NCBI GenBank assembly: GCA_963703315.1
Contig: OY969811.1
Span: 800,001-864,000 of the forward strand
Length of the DNA stretch: 64,000 nucleotides
Direction: 5' to 3'
DNA from: an uncultured cyanobacterium
GTDB lineage: Bacteria; Cyanobacteriota; Cyanobacteriia; Pseudanabaenales; Pseudanabaenaceae
The notes beneath the pieces were generated by a model. The model was not told the DNA's origin, did not search any database, and saw only the letters and a program-made list of their open reading frames with translations. The position numbers and the translations under genes are program-made. This document shows positions 31,532 through 55,503 of the stretch, one piece after another (the stretch's first letter is position 1; the number at the start of each line of letters is the position of its first letter).

Positions 31532-32386
31532 ATGTTTCGACTTAAGTACCCCACAGAGCAAAGCGATCCGCCCCTTTCGCCCAGAGAAACTTTGCCTACG
31601 ATGTATGACTTGCCTAGCGAAGATCCTGAGGAATCTGGTTTGCCCGATCAATTTCATGACTTTCAGCCTGAGCTATTGGGTTTGACCTTTCGCCCTGCCA
31701 ACTATCCTGAAGATATCGTGTTTACGGCTAGCGATCTCAATCTCTACTATGATGTGCATCATCAAAATTGGTATAAGCGCCCCGACTGGTTTGCCGTGTT
31801 GGGTGTGCCAAGACTCTATGACGGTCATGATTTGCGCTTGAGCTATGTGATTTGGCAAGAGGGAGTCAGTCCTAGCATTGTGGTGGAACTGTTGTCACCT
31901 AGTACTGAAAAAGAAGATTTAGGGGAACTGGAAATAAGCGATCGCAATGGGACGAATTCCCAAACCGAAAAGCCGCCCTCTAAGTGGCAAGTCTATGAGC
32001 AGATTTTACGGATTCCCTATTATCTGGTGTTTAGCCGCTATACCAATCAGTTACGTGTATTTACTCTGCGATCGGGACATTATGTAGAAATACAGTTAAC
32101 TGAATCGAAAATCTGGCTCCCTGAAATTGAGCTAGGTTTAGGAATTTGGGAAGGTGAGTATCGCGGTATTCATCGCCTATGGTTACGTTGGTATGACTCA
32201 GAAGGAAATTGGATACCTACGGATACCGAACGATTGGAACTGGCTAATCAAGAAATATCCTCAGTGGAGCAGCGTGCTGAGTCTGCTGAACAACGCGCGG
32301 AATCTGCCGAACAACGCGCTGAATCTGCTGAGCAACGCGCTGAATATTTACTACAACGTTTGAGAGAGTTAGGAATTGAGCCATAA
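31532..32386 (+). CDS. Uma2 family endonuclease with AEQRAES heptad tail
   Basis: LPTMYDLPSE, KRPDWF, VELLSPST, LWLRWYD; 21-bp tandem repeats near 32267-32346. Confidence 0.9.
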   Translation: MFRLKYPTEQSDPPLSPRETLPTMYDLPSEDPEESGLPDQFHDFQPELLGLTFRPANYPEDIVFTASDLNLYYDVHHQNWYKRPDWFAVLGVPRLYDGHDLRLSYVIWQEGVSPSIVVELLSPSTEKEDLGELEISDRNGTNSQTEKPPSKWQVYEQILRIPYYLVFSRYTNQLRVFTLRSGHYVEIQLTESKIWLPEIELGLGIWEGEYRGIHRLWLRWYDSEGNWIPTDTERLELANQEISSVEQRAESAEQRAESAEQRAESAEQRAEYLLQRLRELGIEP

Positions 32387-33640: not shown

Positions 33641-34807
33641 ATGGTTTTACCTCAACAGCGATGGCAGATTTCCGCACCACAGCCAAATTTATCGGCAAAG
33701 ATCGCTAATGTTACGGGACTTTCGCCCATAATCGCGCAGGTTTTACTAAATCGCGGTATTAATACCCCTGAAGCCGCTAAGGTTTTTCTTGATCCCGAAC
33801 TGGAAGATCTGCCTGATCCCAAACAGGAATTTCCTGATTTAATTGCGAGTATCGATCGCATTGAGCAAGCTATAAAAAACGGCGATCGCATTACAATCTG
33901 TGGTGACTATGATGTTGACGGCATGACTAGTACCGCTTTGTTAATTCGGACTTTGCGACTATTGGGTGGCAATGTGGAATATGAAATTCCGAGTCGGATG
34001 ACGGAGGGCTATGGAATTAATGCGCGGATCGTACAGGATTGTCACGATCGCGATGTCAGACTAATTATTACTGTGGACAATGGCATTGCGGCTTATGAGG
34101 CGATCGCCTTAGCCAAATCCTTAAATATTTCTGTAATTGTTACCGATCACCACGAAGTTCCCGAAGACCCCAGCAAAATTCCACCCGCCACCGCAATCCT
34201 CAATCCTAAATATCAAGTTGATCCTGATTCACCCTACGCGGCGATCGCTGGGGTTGGTGTTGCCTATGTGTTGGCGTTGGAATTAAGCGATCGCTTTGGC
34301 AAACGCACCGAGTTAGAAAATCCGTTATTAGAATTATTTACCCTCGGTACAATTGCCGATCTTGCCTCCTTAACAGGCATCAATCGCCGCCTTGTCAAAA
34401 AAGGTTTACGCTTACTTTCGCAATCTAAAGTTATTGGCATCATTGCCCTGATTAATGAAACAGGAATTGCCAAAGATAAACAAACTGGTTTGAAACCTGA
34501 AGCGATCGGTTTTGGTTTGGGACCAAGAATTAATGCGATCGGGCGGATTGGTAATCCGCAAGTAATTATTGATCTGTTGACCTGTGAGGATATGGGGCAG
34601 GCGATCGCCTTAGCCCAAGAATGTGAAGCTACTAATCGCAAGCGTCAAGATCTGTGCAAAGAGATCGAACAAGAGGCGATCGCCTATATGTCAAAGCTCA
34701 AATCAGAGGGTTTTGATATTACTCAAGAACGAGTTTTAGTAATAGTTGATCGGGAGGTGCAGGATACTCTCTATCCTGCTCCCAAGGGAAACAAAGAAAT
34801 GGCGTAG
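33641..34807 (+). CDS. recJ: RecJ ssDNA exonuclease, N-terminal DHH half only (split gene)
   Basis: GDYDVDG, TVDNG, TDHH, GTIAD, PRINAIGR present; ends after ERVLVIVD with no DHHA1 domain. Confidence 0.9.
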   Translation: MVLPQQRWQISAPQPNLSAKIANVTGLSPIIAQVLLNRGINTPEAAKVFLDPELEDLPDPKQEFPDLIASIDRIEQAIKNGDRITICGDYDVDGMTSTALLIRTLRLLGGNVEYEIPSRMTEGYGINARIVQDCHDRDVRLIITVDNGIAAYEAIALAKSLNISVIVTDHHEVPEDPSKIPPATAILNPKYQVDPDSPYAAIAGVGVAYVLALELSDRFGKRTELENPLLELFTLGTIADLASLTGINRRLVKKGLRLLSQSKVIGIIALINETGIAKDKQTGLKPEAIGFGLGPRINAIGRIGNPQVIIDLLTCEDMGQAIALAQECEATNRKRQDLCKEIEQEAIAYMSKLKSEGFDITQERVLVIVDREVQDTLYPAPKGNKEMA

Positions 34808-34887
34808 CTATTTCTTTGTTTGAAAACCCTTACTGGGTTTGGTTTTCAATTCACAAACATTGTGGTCACACTTTTGTGAATTGGTAT
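34789..34887. mobile_element. MITE-like family C copy supplying the stop codon of the recJ N-half (5' end missing)
   Basis: aaacaaagaaatggc-gta-gctatttctttgttt gaaaacccttactgggtttggtttt caattcaca...tgtgaattggtat. Confidence 0.75.
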
Positions 34888-34915
34888 TATAAAGTTTAAG
34901 TTAGGTAAAGTCATT

Positions 34916-35560
34916 ATGAACACATTACTCAAACCAGCCTCAAACCAAATAGACACATGGATTAATGCTCCTTGGTCAGAATTTGTAGCGATCTCCGATT
35001 CAACCGATAGCGACAAACGCAAAAGCTACTATTACAAACAACAGATGAGATTTGAGGATATGTCCACAGGTTCCGATCACGCTAACGATCACGCATTAAT
35101 TCTATTTGCCATCTCCTTTTATGCCGCCACAAAGCAAATACCCATGACTGCCAAAGATGGCTGCTCCTATCGCCAAAGCGGAAAAACTGAATTTCAGCCC
35201 GATGTCTCCTATTACATTGGTGACAATGCCGATGCGATCGCTTGGGGAACGCGCATCATTGACCTCGATCAATATCCCTTACCCGATCTCGTCATTGAAA
35301 TATCTGACACCACCTTCAACGATGACCTCGGCACAAAACGCCTGCAATACGAAGAATTAGGCATCAAAGAATATTGGATCGTCAATGTCCAAACTATGAA
35401 AATCTATGCCTTTGCGATCGCCCCCGATGGCAGCAGCCATCATATTCGCCAATCCTTAGTGCTATCAGGATTAAAACTCGAAATCTTAGAACAAGTTCTC
35501 GAACGTAGTCGCCAAGAAAATCAATCAACCGTCACCGCATGGCTAATGAAGCAATTCTAA
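34916..35560 (+). CDS. Uma2 family endonuclease lying between the recJ halves
   Basis: QPDVSYY, PDLVIEIS, DDLGTKR..YEELGIKEYW. Confidence 0.9.
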   Translation: MNTLLKPASNQIDTWINAPWSEFVAISDSTDSDKRKSYYYKQQMRFEDMSTGSDHANDHALILFAISFYAATKQIPMTAKDGCSYRQSGKTEFQPDVSYYIGDNADAIAWGTRIIDLDQYPLPDLVIEISDTTFNDDLGTKRLQYEELGIKEYWIVNVQTMKIYAFAIAPDGSSHHIRQSLVLSGLKLEILEQVLERSRQENQSTVTAWLMKQF

Positions 35561-35620
35561 CGAGCGCTAAAGATTGAGAAGTTTGCCAGTTTAGAAATAT
35601 GCAACTTAAGTTAGAAGCAA

Positions 35621-37747
35621 ATGGAAATACAGTCAGCGAATTTTAGTTTTTTGCGCGAGCATGATCCACAATTGGTAAACCTTGCTGCCAGAGCTGAACA
35701 GTATTTACATAGCGACAGTAATACCTGCATCATCAAACTGCGGCAATTTGCCGAGCGTCTTGCCCAGCACATCGCCAACAATACAGGGCATTATCAAGCA
35801 GAAGATGAAGCACAGCTAGATTTGCTAAGACGACTTAAAGCAGAAGGTGTCATTTCTCGTGAAGTCGCTGAACTTTTCCATAGCATTCGCATCGGAGGCA
35901 ATCATGCCGCCCATAAAGGCAAAGATGACAGCCGCCAAGCCCTTACTCTCCTCGAAAATGCACATGAGTTAGGCAACTGGTTTCATCACGAATTTGGTAA
36001 TGACAGAAATTTTAGGGCAGGGGTATTCGTGCCACCTGCTCCGCCCATCGATGCTGAAATGGAGAGACTGAAAAGGGATGCCGAACAATCTCGCCGAGAT
36101 GCCGAAGAAAAAGAGATTGCTCTGAAAATAGCCGAAGCAGAAAAGCAACGATTGGAAAAAATATTGCGCGATTTGGATGCCGAACAATCTCGCCGAGATG
36201 CCGAAGAAAAAGAGATCGCCCTGAAAATAGCTGAAGCACAAGCCCGTCAAGCCGAAGTAGAAAAGCAACGATTAGAAGACATAGCGAGAGAAAAGGAAAA
36301 GCAAAGAATAGAAGAGAATATTACCAATCAAATTGATACACATCCACAAACTGCGGATATCCCCAATCAACTACAAATTGACACTAAAAATATCGATCCC
36401 GATGAAGATCTAACTGGTCAAGTTAGCGATCCAAGTCGAGAAATTGCTCCTGTTGCCAAAGAGGAAACAGCCCTCACCCCCATAGAGAGCAGTAAGAAAG
36501 AAAAGAGTAAGAAATCGGGTTGGCATCATGGGGTGATTGGGATTGTTGCTTCGCGTCTAGTGGAACGTTACGGCGCACCCGTATTTATTGGCAGTTATGA
36601 AGATGCCCATGATGATGATTCTGACCAAGTTGCCACTGTGCGCTTCTCAGTGCGGGGAATTCCAGAATTTCATGTTTTCAACGCCCTTGAATATGAACCG
36701 ATTAAAACTATTCGCAACAAAGGTGGCGGACATAAAGCGGCGGGTGGTTTTACTCTGCCTGCGGAGAATCTGGAAAAGCTGCGAGATGGATTAAGGGAAT
36801 TTGCCGATCGCGAAAATATTCTCCCTAGTCACATCATGCCTCTAGTCAATGTCGATGTTCGTGTCGATCTCAGTGATATCTCCATGACACTTCTGCAACA
36901 ATGCGATCGCCTGCAACCCTGCGGACTTGGTAATTCTGATCCTGTGTTCTATAGCGAAAATGTGCGCGTCATTTCCCAACAAACTCGCGGTAAGGATAAA
37001 GTCAAACATCTTTCTCTAGAACTGGATACAGGCAATGGCAAAATCAAAGCGATCGCATGGCGATGGGGAGAATATTGTCCTGTCCCTGATCATATAGATA
37101 TTGCTTACAAGTTGCGTGCGAATCAATGGCAAGATACAACTTCTGTAGAATTGGAAATAGTTGGTATTCGTGAAGCAGGTAATCTCATGGAAGATGCTAC
37201 AAGTTCGCCGAAACAGATTCAACTGCAATATAAACCTGCGCCCCTAATTAGCAAGGTTCCCCAATGGCAAAAACTCAGTGAAGCCACAAGACCTTTACCT
37301 CGTCCATTATTACTATATGGCTGCGATCGCCCTGCCGATAAGTTCCAAGGTGATGTCGATTGCGATCGCCCGAAACGAGATCGTAATTATGAAGCAGTCG
37401 TCCTATGGACTTTGCCACCATCATTCACACATCTGCAATGGCTAATCGCTACTGCCCAACCTGACTATATCTATCTTGGTTCTCATATTCCATCAGTTCC
37501 TTCCATTGAGCAATTTCGCGCCCAAGTTCAATCTCTTGATTTAGAGAATATCGAAAAATTAAATCTATTAGATATCTCGCAGCAATGGTGGATTTCACCT
37601 AGTGCGATCATTGCTGCCCTAAGAGAAAGAGGTTATCTCTGCGATTTCCCCAATACTTTACCTCTTGAAGGAGAATTACTGAGAATGCAAAAGTGGTACA
37701 GCATCGCTATCAATAAACTTGCTAAGATTCTTGCTGATCAACAATAG
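35621..37747 (+). CDS. Chimeric protein: HsdR-N/DUF4145-like domain + coiled coil + RecJ C-terminal half (DHHA1, OB fold)
   Basis: SANFSFL..AE..D..KLRQFAE..RIGGNHAAH N-terminus; from nt 36521 WHHGVIGIVASRLVERY, GGGHKAAGGF, LQPCGLGN, IAYKLRANQW. Confidence 0.85.
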   Translation: MEIQSANFSFLREHDPQLVNLAARAEQYLHSDSNTCIIKLRQFAERLAQHIANNTGHYQAEDEAQLDLLRRLKAEGVISREVAELFHSIRIGGNHAAHKGKDDSRQALTLLENAHELGNWFHHEFGNDRNFRAGVFVPPAPPIDAEMERLKRDAEQSRRDAEEKEIALKIAEAEKQRLEKILRDLDAEQSRRDAEEKEIALKIAEAQARQAEVEKQRLEDIAREKEKQRIEENITNQIDTHPQTADIPNQLQIDTKNIDPDEDLTGQVSDPSREIAPVAKEETALTPIESSKKEKSKKSGWHHGVIGIVASRLVERYGAPVFIGSYEDAHDDDSDQVATVRFSVRGIPEFHVFNALEYEPIKTIRNKGGGHKAAGGFTLPAENLEKLRDGLREFADRENILPSHIMPLVNVDVRVDLSDISMTLLQQCDRLQPCGLGNSDPVFYSENVRVISQQTRGKDKVKHLSLELDTGNGKIKAIAWRWGEYCPVPDHIDIAYKLRANQWQDTTSVELEIVGIREAGNLMEDATSSPKQIQLQYKPAPLISKVPQWQKLSEATRPLPRPLLLYGCDRPADKFQGDVDCDRPKRDRNYEAVVLWTLPPSFTHLQWLIATAQPDYIYLGSHIPSVPSIEQFRAQVQSLDLENIEKLNLLDISQQWWISPSAIIAALRERGYLCDFPNTLPLEGELLRMQKWYSIAINKLAKILADQQ
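36076..36238 (+). repeat. Intragenic direct repeat, 99-bp period (DAEQSRRDAEEKEIALKIAEA x2)
   Basis: gatgccgaacaatctcgccgagatgccgaagaaaaagagat at 36077 and 36176. Confidence 0.9.
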
Positions 37748-53844: not shown

Positions 53845-55503
53845 CTAACTCTTTGGCTTGCGTGACGATTTTGGATTTGGGCTATCAACTTTAGGTTTAT
53901 TAAAACCACTACCTGCTTTAGGTGAAGTCTTAGTCTTCTTTGCTTTGGAATTTAAGGATGCTGCTACTTTTGGTTCAGAGTTAGGCTGTGTTTCGACGAT
54001 AGGCTCAGAAATATTCTCGACTACTGGTTCTACTGAGTCTACAGAATTGATTTCGACAATAGGTTCAGGAAGAACTGTGACTAGTGGTTCTACAGGAGTT
54101 TCTAAGACAGGTTCAGGAACTGCTGCTGTCAAATTGCTCACTTCTATTACAGGCTCGGTTTGAAGGCTTGTAACTGTTTCAGTCGAAGTCTCAATAACCT
54201 GTTCAGGGATAACTTCTGGAACTGGCTCAGAAATGTTAGGAGTAACAGTTTCTGAAATGGTTTCTGAATTGTGGACAGTTTCAATCTTAGTTTTGCTTGA
54301 TGTGCGACTTTTACCTGATGCTTTAGGAGTAGAGGCTTTTGGGGATTCACTTTGAGATTTTTTTGCTTTGGCAACTGACACTTCAGGTTCAACTGCTGGA
54401 ACAGGTACAACTTCAGCGATCGCTTCTACAACCTTACTTTGAGATTTTTTTGCTTTGGCAATTGGTGCTTCAGGTTCAACTACTGGAACAGAGACAACTT
54501 CAGCGATCGCTTCTACAACCTTACTTTGAGATTTTTTTGCTTTGGCAATTGGTGCTTCAGGTTCAACTACTGGAACAGAGACAACTTCGGTGATTGCTTC
54601 TACAACCTTTTCTACAGGTTGTTCATTTTTCGGCTTATTAAAACCACTACTGGATTTAGCCGAGGTTTTAGTCTTTTTAGCTTTGGCTGTTGGAACTACG
54701 GTTGTTTTTTGCTCAGTATCAGGTTTTGCGTTGATAATAGGCTCAGCCATAATTTCAACTACTGACTCAACAGTTGAGTCAACAATAGGTTCCACAAGCT
54801 CTGGCTCAGGATGTTTAATACTTTGTTCGGGAGATGTTTCTAAAACAATTGGGGAAATTTCTGTAATTTCTTCAACTTGATCAAGTTGATCAAAATCAGC
54901 GATCGCCCCCTCAACAGTTGAGTCAACAATAGGTTCCACAAGCTCTGGCTCAAGATGTTTAATACCTGGTTCGAGATTTGGTTCGGGATTTGGTTCGGGA
55001 GATGCTTCTGAAACAATTGGGGGAATTTCTGTAACTTCTTCAACTGGATCAACTTGATCAAAATCAGCGATCGCCCCCTCAACAGTTGAGTCAACAATAG
55101 GTTCCACAAGCTCTGGCTCAAGATGTTTAATACTTGTTTCGAGATTGGGTTCGGGATTTGGTTTGGGAGATGCTTCTGAAGCAATGGGGGGAATTTCTGT
55201 AACTTCTTCAAGTTGATCAAAATCAGCGATCGCCCCTATTGATGTGCTTAAGATATTGGTGGGAACTTCTTGATGATGGATTTGAGGAGCTTGCATATCA
55301 AAATCAGCTACCGTTGTGACCTTAACGATCTTGCCCCCAAAACGGTGAATTCTTTGAATAGTCTGCGATAAGCGATCGCGGGGAACTGTCAGCGTATATG
55401 ACCCTTTTCGCCTCACTCCTGTCTGTATTCCCCCTACCACCTCAATAATTATGTGGTTATGGTTGCTGGTATTGACTACAGCATTAATGTTTAAGTTTGT
55501 CAT
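53845..55503 (-). CDS. CpcD/allophycocyanin-linker-domain protein with long repetitive E/P/V/K-rich tail
   Basis: IEVVGG...YTLTVPRDRLSQTIQRIHRFGGKIVKV; ATG at 55503 preferred over 55548. Confidence 0.8.
   Translation of the reverse strand: MTNLNINAVVNTSNHNHIIIEVVGGIQTGVRRKGSYTLTVPRDRLSQTIQRIHRFGGKIVKVTTVADFDMQAPQIHHQEVPTNILSTSIGAIADFDQLEEVTEIPPIASEASPKPNPEPNLETSIKHLEPELVEPIVDSTVEGAIADFDQVDPVEEVTEIPPIVSEASPEPNPEPNLEPGIKHLEPELVEPIVDSTVEGAIADFDQLDQVEEITEISPIVLETSPEQSIKHPEPELVEPIVDSTVESVVEIMAEPIINAKPDTEQKTTVVPTAKAKKTKTSAKSSSGFNKPKNEQPVEKVVEAITEVVSVPVVEPEAPIAKAKKSQSKVVEAIAEVVSVPVVEPEAPIAKAKKSQSKVVEAIAEVVPVPAVEPEVSVAKAKKSQSESPKASTPKASGKSRTSSKTKIETVHNSETISETVTPNISEPVPEVIPEQVIETSTETVTSLQTEPVIEVSNLTAAVPEPVLETPVEPLVTVLPEPIVEINSVDSVEPVVENISEPIVETQPNSEPKVAASLNSKAKKTKTSPKAGSGFNKPKVDSPNPKSSRKPKS
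54349..55236 (-). repeat. Intragenic tandem repeats: 87-bp unit x3 and 144/168-bp units
   Basis: actttgagattt at 54349/54436/54523; tcaacagttgagtcaacaatagg at 54767/54911/55079. Confidence 0.9.

Follow-up and report, generated by a model that had tools for sequence, protein, structure and literature searches.

A recJ gene split in two open reading frames in Pseudanabaenaceae: conserved halves, a probable two-chain exonuclease and its likely spread between species

Enzymes that are split by an inserted nuclease gene have been described from a few phages (PMC3045599; PMC2988022). In phage Aeh1, mobE divides the nrdA gene, so that the enzyme consists of two chains which together form a composite active site (PMC3045599; PMC2988022; PMC10448857), and further genes in pieces include gene 60/39 of phage T4, interrupted by mobA, and gene 43A/43B of an Aeromonas phage (PMC3045599; PMC2988022). 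The present work concerns a split recJ gene in an uncultured cyanobacterium of the family Pseudanabaenaceae, found in a stretch of 64,000 nucleotides (nt) (assembly GCA_963703315.1, contig OY969811.1, positions 800,001 to 864,000; hereafter the window). The genome consists of one contig of 4.57 Mb and its homologues carry the source label Pseudanabaena. In the window recJ occupies two open reading frames (ORFs), 33641-34807 (388 amino acids, aa) and 35621-37747 (708 aa), with a gene of the Uma2 family between them. The explanation that accounts best for the data, and that is considered probable, is a split recJ whose halves are conserved in 17 species, likely reassemble as a two-chain exonuclease and likely spread by means of crossovers at flanking copies of the palindrome HIP1 (GCGATCGC).

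The nearest known case is nrdA of phage Aeh1 and, by analogy, the recJ split would be alike in its working without being the same system. In both, a nuclease gene lies within the gene of an enzyme, the active-site residues are shared out between two chains, each chain has a new tail and there is no splicing. However, recJ is a chromosomal repair gene of a cellular genus whereas nrdA is a phage gene, and the recJ insert is a fragment of a type I restriction-modification (R-M) locus with Uma2 instead of an HNH homing endonuclease; in addition, the recJ tails are variable and both allele states persist across species. Interruption elements (xis), as outlined in PMC4874684, resemble the locus in that a gene is interrupted by DNA with variable cargo, but the recJ insert lacks a recombinase and a bracketing direct repeat, and each half has its own start and stop. 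The fractured genes with split inteins reported in PMC2677866 likewise comprise two gene halves with an endonuclease gene between them, but no intein domain was found on either recJ half. The listings of the literature searches contained no split RecJ, no study of Pseudanabaena recJ and no chromosomal DNA-repair nuclease that is interrupted within the domain binding its substrate and persists in this form in a third of a genus; on Uma2 they contained no functional study by title.

With respect to bacterial RecJ (TIGR00644; Deinococcus RecJ 5F54, PMC4846377), all the DHH, DHHA1 and OB motifs tested are present and in order, but they are distributed over two ORFs, the cut follows the first strand of DHHA1 and the C chain bears an N-terminus derived from HsdR. 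The N ORF contains a Pfam DHH match (83-237), covers positions 2-339 of TIGR00644 and ends with ERVLVIVD-REVQDTLYPAPKGNKEMA before its TAG. Two bases of this stop codon fall in the 3-nt loop of a 15-bp hairpin and the remaining one in its stem; the hairpin belongs to a repeat family with 214 matches in the genome (at most 3 mismatches). The motif WHHGVIGIVASRLVE picks up again at 36521, 1770 nt past D370, in the C ORF. The latter covers TIGR00644 positions 335-543, preceded by an HsdR-like N-terminus of 300 residues (DUF4145; PRK11448 positions 2-238) that is in frame with DHHA1, RecJ_OB and the C-terminal domain. The two ORFs score 325 and 128 bits with TIGR00644, each below the cut-off for a single polypeptide (396.9). 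A second recJ in the genome is intact (770 aa, 35% identical) and is present beside split and unbroken alleles alike. Two recJ genes are present in many cyanobacteria (PMC5101192), and this paralogue is the ordinary second cyanobacterial recJ.

A sequence-only reading made earlier, from the letters of the window, had described a naturally split recJ, and the identical break in relatives confirms it. The reading also held that the N ORF carries RecJ motifs and ends shortly past ERVLVIVD, with its stop in a repeat loop, that the missing motif resumes about 1.75 kb later, that neither half has stops or frameshifts and that no recombinase or intein motif is present; all of this was borne out, with both frames open in 17 of 17 split genomes and no such domain among the Pfam and NCBIfam matches. 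Two points were revised. The repeat and the Uma2 gene do lie in the gap, but the HsdR-N domain placed there as a separate ORF is part of the C ORF; and the break, thought to fall just after the long helix, is located about 15 residues further on, inside DHHA1 and past its first strand.

The position of the break is relevant to how the enzyme could work. The structural report on Deinococcus RecJ assigns residues 328-424 to DHHA1 and residues 1-48 to the OB domain, and describes Ser371, Arg373, a gateway helix and the proposed general acid His397 (PMC4846377). Alignment of an unbroken relative with this protein places the break between the 'ALVL' strand and the WH helix, inside DHHA1, and the Pfam DHHA1 match on the C chain begins at profile position 10. 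For the unbroken relative P0078, an AlphaFold model (39 sequences; predicted local distance difference test, pLDDT, 87) contains a helix (318-355), a strand (366-369), a loop and a further helix (387-401); a single-sequence model of the C ORF had a pLDDT of 42 and was not used. By Deinococcus equivalence the metal ligands are on the N chain, and the counterparts of Ser371/Arg373, the gateway helix and His397 are on the C chain. Since the metal ligands are separated in this way from SxR, GGH and the gateway helix, activity would need both chains, which could meet at two natural interfaces.

In all 17 split alleles the DHH motifs I-V with the metal ligands, the DHHA1 motifs VI (SxR) and VII (GGH), the OB fold and the interface strand ERVLVIVD are present, and the 16 motifs tested are retained in 16-17 of the 17. 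The catalytic residues are divided over two separately translated predicted ORFs, and the halves likely reassemble into one two-chain enzyme with a composite active site. A two-chain RecJ had been one of two options in the sequence-only reading; it fits all the evidence, reassembly itself being the step that we infer. It is unlikely that the two halves, although produced and under selection, act separately, the N half as a DHH phosphoesterase and the C half as a protein that binds single-stranded DNA or a partner. Purifying selection on each half does not imply contact and the halves are unlinked in 3 of 17 split genomes, all drafts; nevertheless, the C chain lacks the first DHHA1 strand, which all 17 N chains retain unchanged, and SxR and GGH are invariant on the C chain even though, in the Deinococcus report, they act at the DHH active site (PMC4846377).

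Both recJ pieces are under purifying selection. Under codon models (G003 excluded from the N set, G027 from the C set, G011 and G024 from the distal C set) the ratio of nonsynonymous to synonymous substitution rates (dN/dS) in split versus unbroken alleles was 0.064 and 0.077 for the N half, 0.089 and 0.064 for the DHHA1 segment, 0.042 and 0.042 for OB, and 0.135 and 0.134 for the C-terminal domain, in agreement with pairwise values. Thus the calculation on each half that the sequence-only reading had proposed gave split values that match those of unbroken alleles. The DHHA1 segment is the clean test of selection because all split copies descend in the split state; this block has a mean dS of 0.645 among the 17 species with a pairwise dN/dS of 0.10. 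The second option of that reading, a recent disruption, is refuted because a segment inherited as split has accumulated a mean dS of 0.65 at dN/dS 0.10; motifs are kept in both halves. A simple pseudogene, which it had pictured as neutrally evolving halves with an intact paralogue elsewhere, is right about the paralogue but is not supported for the halves, both of which are conserved.

Some observations weigh against the two-chain explanation. Three-taxon counts give a slight excess of amino-acid changes on split lineages, both in the N half (173/629 vs 140/613) and in distal C (252/461 vs 172/358), in trios that are non-independent and with much of the excess contributed by G001. The dN/dS of the N half and of distal C partly reflects history before each lineage acquired the split allele, and the intact second recJ could cover a loss of function. 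The split allele could in principle be a null or weak recJ which spreads since low RecJ activity raises DNA uptake and integration, its apparent conservation being due to recent spread and to repeated recombination with unbroken alleles. This is improbable, to about the same degree as separately working halves. Loss of recJ is cited as raising Synechocystis transformation about 100-fold (as cited in 10.1101/2024.09.10.611283), loss of recJcy aids plasmid transfer in S. elongatus (PMC10653904), and the paralogue and the excess of amino-acid changes would be in line with it; but dS and dN/dS of the split-only block, together with the lack of any stop or frameshift in 17 of 17 alleles, speak against it, the block does not exchange with unbroken alleles, and the start of the C half has been kept through deletions. 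The best explanation would also accommodate a two-chain enzyme that works at reduced activity.

The distribution of the split was followed in all 48 genomes of the genus. The break, with the N-half tail REVQDTLY, occurs in 17, and recJ is continuous in 31, among them one with a frameshift in the N half and two that run off contig ends. The alignment proposed earlier for defining the empty site thereby has 31 continuous relatives, in which the loop after the first DHHA1 strand measures 14-66 aa versus 3 aa in 4 of 4 distant cyanobacteria. Many of these loops are made of a dispersed palindromic repeat (58 matches in the window genome, at most 3 mismatches), and in relatives the loop remnant in front of the C part is a clear copy of it. 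The unbroken state is the apparent ancestor because the same-family outgroup has a loop of 14 aa and a 6-nt insertion of the split alleles (encoding EP) is missing from three of three outgroups. This insertion is present in 17 of 17 split alleles, a 6-nt insertion occurs also in 3 of the 30 unbroken alleles that reach the site, and the 27 C-half proteins with an hsdR-derived start among 120 protein matches listed all carry the two-residue insertion. As an adaptation that followed the split it was not established, given the three unbroken alleles with two additional residues there.

The insert ranges from 943 to 2215 nt and its ends vary. An in-frame ATG for the C half has been kept in three ways, by the whole 5' end of hsdR (12 genomes), by the first 17 codons of hsdR where a deletion has preserved the frame (2) or by an internal MDQ (3). 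The tails measure 9-21 aa on the N chain and 37-313 aa on the C chain and, because of these varying lengths, are unlikely to be dedicated interaction domains. In G005, G012 and G022 the halves are on different contigs with unrelated neighbours; these genomes are drafts, in which wrong joins at repeats or mixed bins may explain the unlinked halves. Beyond the genome set, 18 protein clusters with the HsdR-N fusion cover nearly the entire query, and a metagenome scan detected four loci, two of them 100% identical to G022, and possibly its source, and one with only 755 nt past the break. Outside the genus no split was seen among the matches listed (150 of 222 matches with frame lengths, class-wide draw of 251 genomes), where four short recJ frames all lie at or near contig ends; viral contigs had no match to the N-tail pattern.

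Misassembly, named in the sequence-only reading as a way in which the split could prove false, or a recent pseudogene of one strain, can be practically dismissed. Repeats at both ends of the insert would favour a wrong join; but the arrangement recurs in 17 independent species assemblies, in the 18 fusion clusters and in contigs of four RNA studies, and chance or misassembly is excluded because the identical break is found in 17 of 48 genomes.

Other observations on unbroken alleles concern the same loop or gene. In L040, L049, L077, L080, L082 and L083 the loop, enlarged in frame, measures 58-66 aa and lies between two inverted copies of a dispersed repeat (ALTPSPSP...GEG; LSP.GRGAGGEG). The recJ loop after the first DHHA1 strand is a hot spot for repeat insertion within coding sequence. 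The unbroken recJ of G031 (L058) has WDHG in place of WHHG, two more motif changes and an N half unlike that of its rpoB relatives, and is possibly decaying or recently replaced, while the unbroken-type recJ of G003 (L066) has a frameshift near codon 236 that is either an error or a true pseudogene.

The origin of the insert can be traced by its contents. A Uma2 gene 82-90% identical to the inserted one stands directly before hsdR elsewhere in 3 genomes with unbroken recJ. In G005 (L057, L072) the N half is followed by a gene of 644 aa, Uma2, a full hsdR of 1104 aa and an hsdM-like ORF (read by eye), with the C half on a different contig, where it is flanked by murA and by small toxin-antitoxin-like genes. 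Because Uma2 adjoins hsdR in these genomes, the cargo is, as judged from gene order, a fragment of a native Uma2-hsdR type I R-M locus. The hsdR piece comprises the first 280 codons or so and ends at the start of the HsdR nuclease domain; a complete hsdR with hsdM and hsdS is not present at the window locus, and a full hsdR behind the N half occurs only in G005. The piece is missing in 5 of 17 split genomes and is nearly relaxed (dN/dS 0.485). Uma2 has a dN/dS of 0.14-0.17 (codon model 0.141) and is intact beside the N half in 14 of 17 genomes and reduced to fragments in 2; the family has more than 12 paralogues in the window genome, and Uma2 of the insert matches the candidate defence families PDC-S17 and PDC-S03. 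The 'nuclease cassette' of the sequence-only reading overstates this fragment of an ordinary locus, whose HsdR piece ends where its nuclease domain begins, has a dN/dS of 0.48 and is missing from 5 of 17. As a separate observation, the genome's own hsdR (L087, G000:C1 about 3495000-3495800) is a truncated pseudogene with a stop at codon 66, beside an hsdS-like ORF, and is 64% identical to the window piece.

The presence of Uma2 raises the question of homing, in which Uma2 would cut unbroken recJ downstream of the insertion site and the block behind the insert would be a co-conversion tract, an account compatible with a two-chain enzyme. Its probability is put slightly lower than those of the two previous alternatives. 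As in phage Aeh1 nrdA (PMC3045599), a nuclease gene lies inside the split gene; the block is longer downstream than upstream; and Uma2, with PD and ExS motifs, is conserved where intact. On the other hand, closely similar, putatively active Uma2 genes coexist with unbroken recJ in the 3 genomes where they occupy their native place before hsdR, the paralogues are numerous, Uma2 is fragmentary in 2 of 17, tract ends match HIP1 instead of a spread of co-conversion lengths, and 31 of 48 genomes are still unbroken. The insert, consisting of Uma2 and the hsdR fragment, has no homing endonuclease of a known family (HNH, GIY-YIG, LAGLIDADG). A near-neutral or mildly favoured allele is favoured over homing, and drift, selection on Uma2 and altered RecJ activity were considered as drivers of its spread.

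Contigs from four RNA studies of relatives span the junctions of the N half with Uma2 and of Uma2 with the C half, and one matches 375 of 376 nt of a split allele across the hsdR/C junction. The RNA evidence for expression is weak because the contigs come from relatives, lack a silent control and could derive from DNA carry-over; a promoter scan gave 7 sites vs 9.4 expected and hence no evidence. One RNA-library contig (run X20, contig 25) joins 34755 to 36517 in frame, with a loop of 3 aa and about 85% identity to the window. None of the 48 genomes and none of the 120 listed proteins has this unbroken form, and an exact pattern for the short-loop joined form had no match in metagenome contigs. 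The contig was rejected as a spliced or excised product: it lacks the 6-nt EP insertion and differs from the split allele of the same run at 70 of about 410 sites, for which reasons it is the unbroken allele of another strain.

This contig, and the hairpins that follow the N half, were the grounds for considering that the insert is removed at the DNA or RNA level (as an interruption element, intron or intein), restoring a single-chain RecJ. Once the contig is assigned to another strain this becomes very improbable. No site-specific recombinase domain was detected in the insert (ORF translations, Pfam, NCBIfam), no intein domain in the split halves or insert (Pfam, NCBIfam), no Rfam match up to E 1 and no bracketing direct repeat shared across the 17 split alleles; moreover, the ends and lengths of the insert vary and the halves are unlinked in 3 genomes.

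The split has moved between species. On an rpoB tree of 47 genomes (second copy in G036 excluded) the split state requires 13 changes, a single split clade is rejected (approximately unbiased test, p-AU 2e-69) and split genomes are sister to unbroken ones at 100%. In the 380 nt behind the insert (indel columns removed) one branch parts split from unbroken alleles (99/98), with 1 change. G020 (split) and G009 (unbroken), for example, differ by 4% in rpoB and 6% in the N half; immediately upstream and downstream of the insert the differences are 22% and 20%, and beyond that 4%. From the insert to the first HIP1 site behind it, all split genomes share a single lineage, with flanks that follow the host species, and the split block does not exchange with unbroken alleles. 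The split allele spreads as a laterally moving block, probably by the transfer route discussed below; this movement, with block ends at HIP1 sites, is the main point and was out of reach of the sequence-only reading. It is read as the invader because unbroken blocks track rpoB better than split ones (rho 0.55 vs 0.26) and because dS marks the split blocks (0.65) as younger than the sequence flanking them (1.18). Two side observations concern rpoB itself. Over its first 150-700 nt many close species pairs are near-identical and then diverge abruptly, which suggests frequent exchange of a block that enters rpoB from upstream; and G036 has a second, divergent rpoB fragment (L138, G036:C43) that is probably bin contamination.

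The ends of the moving block were compared with HIP1, whose role has been called open for three decades in recent work (PMC13756078). HIP1 has been tied to site-specific events, and the 2015 account reported no evidence for a link to homologous recombination (PMC4390886); in the laboratory, homologous HIP1 sites are reported to lift integration up to 7-fold, and more than 100-fold when methylated (10.1101/2024.09.10.611283). The window genome contains 8189 copies of HIP1 (1.8 per kb). Sites diagnostic of split and unbroken alleles are dense at 36535-36901, ending 2 nt short of the HIP1 site at 36903, with none past 36901 up to C nt 800; upstream there are three, weak and all after HIP1 34676. 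Each split genome was compared with its closest unbroken relative and a break was taken as resolved at a log-likelihood ratio of 10 or more, the cut-offs being picked after the table was seen. Downstream breaks were resolved in 7 of 17 pairs and all seven overlap HIP1, at 36903 (5) or 37049 (2), with a chance probability of 4e-7 (3e-5 with two kin pairs merged). Homology alone fails to explain this end because identical runs of at least 14 nt occur in up to 0.52 of pairs at places within the block, against 0.10 of pairs at the HIP1 bin. Tract ends thus match shared HIP1 sites beyond chance downstream, with a weak signal upstream.

The locus resembles HIP1-associated recombination in having shared HIP1 sites at the ends of exchanged segments. 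It differs from the literature, made up of laboratory integration and older site-specific reports, in that the pattern is deduced from natural allele exchange between species, repeatedly at the same two sites, and from HIP1 as a general breakpoint in that the preference is not seen elsewhere in recJ or rpoB.

Several results tell against the proposed direction of spread or against crossovers at HIP1. Distant outgroups, on long branches, root the block tree inside the split group, although split monophyly is not rejected (p-AU 0.15), and for this reason the direction of transfer rests on the other arguments given. Few breaks resolve upstream (3 of 17, all on HIP1 34601 or 34676; joint chance 0.04), and in several split alleles the crossover lies no more than 66 nt from the insert. 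In a test that covered recJ and rpoB only, 8 other conserved HIP1 sites had a mean percentile of 0.50, as expected if HIP1 is not a general breakpoint, and pairwise breaks fell on HIP1 in 0 of 7 cases in upstream N, 2 of 38 in rpoB and 4 of 7 in distal C (2.1 expected). The block may also be kept intact by selection on DHHA1 residues that are co-adapted, although alone such selection would not set the ends on HIP1.

A sequence of events consistent with these data can be proposed for the split recJ. The loop after the first DHHA1 strand, long in the genus and often filled with repeat, would have received a piece of the Uma2-hsdR locus in a one-time insertion, upon which the N half gained a stop in the repeat hairpin and the C half, fused in frame to hsdR, used the start codon of the latter. 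Based on the Deinococcus structure, the N chain would contribute the metal ligands, the long helix, the first DHHA1 strand and the OB-associated N-terminal segment, and the C chain the gateway helix, SxR and the GGH histidine; the chains would join by strand complementation and by contact of the N-terminus with OB. The segment from the insert to the first HIP1 site is of one lineage between host-like flanks, and natural transformation or a similar process, with crossovers at shared HIP1 sites, may have brought insert and block into new species. A bolder version, doubtful at present, would regard the two-chain RecJ with its composite active site as a trans-species polymorphism, in which HIP1-directed crossover brings in large non-homologous inserts even where the flanks diverge by 20%, and the split would tune the very nuclease that limits DNA uptake, favouring further exchange.

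Table 1. Coordinates of the split recJ locus and of neighbouring HIP1 sites in the window.
Feature	Position	Strand	Remarks
recJ N chain, 388 aa: N-terminal segment, DHH with metal-binding motifs, long helix, DHHA1 strand 1, 18-aa tail	33641..34807	+	
HIP1 site GCGATCGC	34601..34608	.	upstream crossover point in one resolved split/intact pair
HIP1 site, last before insert	34676..34683	.	in 15/17 split and 23/30 unbroken; upstream crossover in two resolved pairs
DHHA1 first strand RVLVIVD	34730-34750	+	on N chain
Four consecutive hairpins, two dispersed genomic repeat families among them	34755..34882	.	N-chain stop in second hairpin
Uma2 family PD-(D/E)XK protein, 214 aa	34916..35560	+	PF05685, E 1.5e-19; PD and ExS motifs
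hsdR 5' fragment (DUF4145, coiled coil with 99-nt internal repeat, linker)	35621..36466	+	supplies C-chain start codon
recJ loop remnant (ALTP...KSG)	36467..36520	+	
recJ C part: rest of DHHA1, OB fold, C-terminal domain	36521..37747	+	same ORF as hsdR fragment
Split-allele haplotype block	36521..36901	+	contains 6-nt EP insertion 36695-36700
C-part motif, WHHG helix		+	
C-part motif, SVR	36647-36655	+	
C-part motif, GGH	36725-36733	+	
HIP1 site, first past insert	36903..36910	.	in 17/17 split and 26/31 unbroken; downstream block end in 5/7 resolved pairs
HIP1 site, following	37049..37056	.	downstream block end in 2/7 resolved pairs

Elsewhere in the window another gene of the Uma2 family (31532-32386), whose product has an AEQRAES repeat at its C-terminus, lies 1.2 kb upstream of recJ. 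Several short palindromic dispersed repeat families are placed between genes (6354-62989), for example one of 55 nt with 12 copies, and tandem coding repeats of 87 and 168 nt occur at 54349-55220.

The results name a natural split point for RecJ, and they imply that what is annotated in these genomes as 'DHHA1 domain-containing proteins' or as truncated recJ is probably not a set of pseudogenes. Repeated natural transfers that end at the same HIP1 sites provide a concrete substrate for the open function of HIP1, with donor and recipient alleles and predicted crossover positions. If the bolder version holds, with its trans-species polymorphism and HIP1-directed crossover, the locus would constitute a natural record of HIP1 action.

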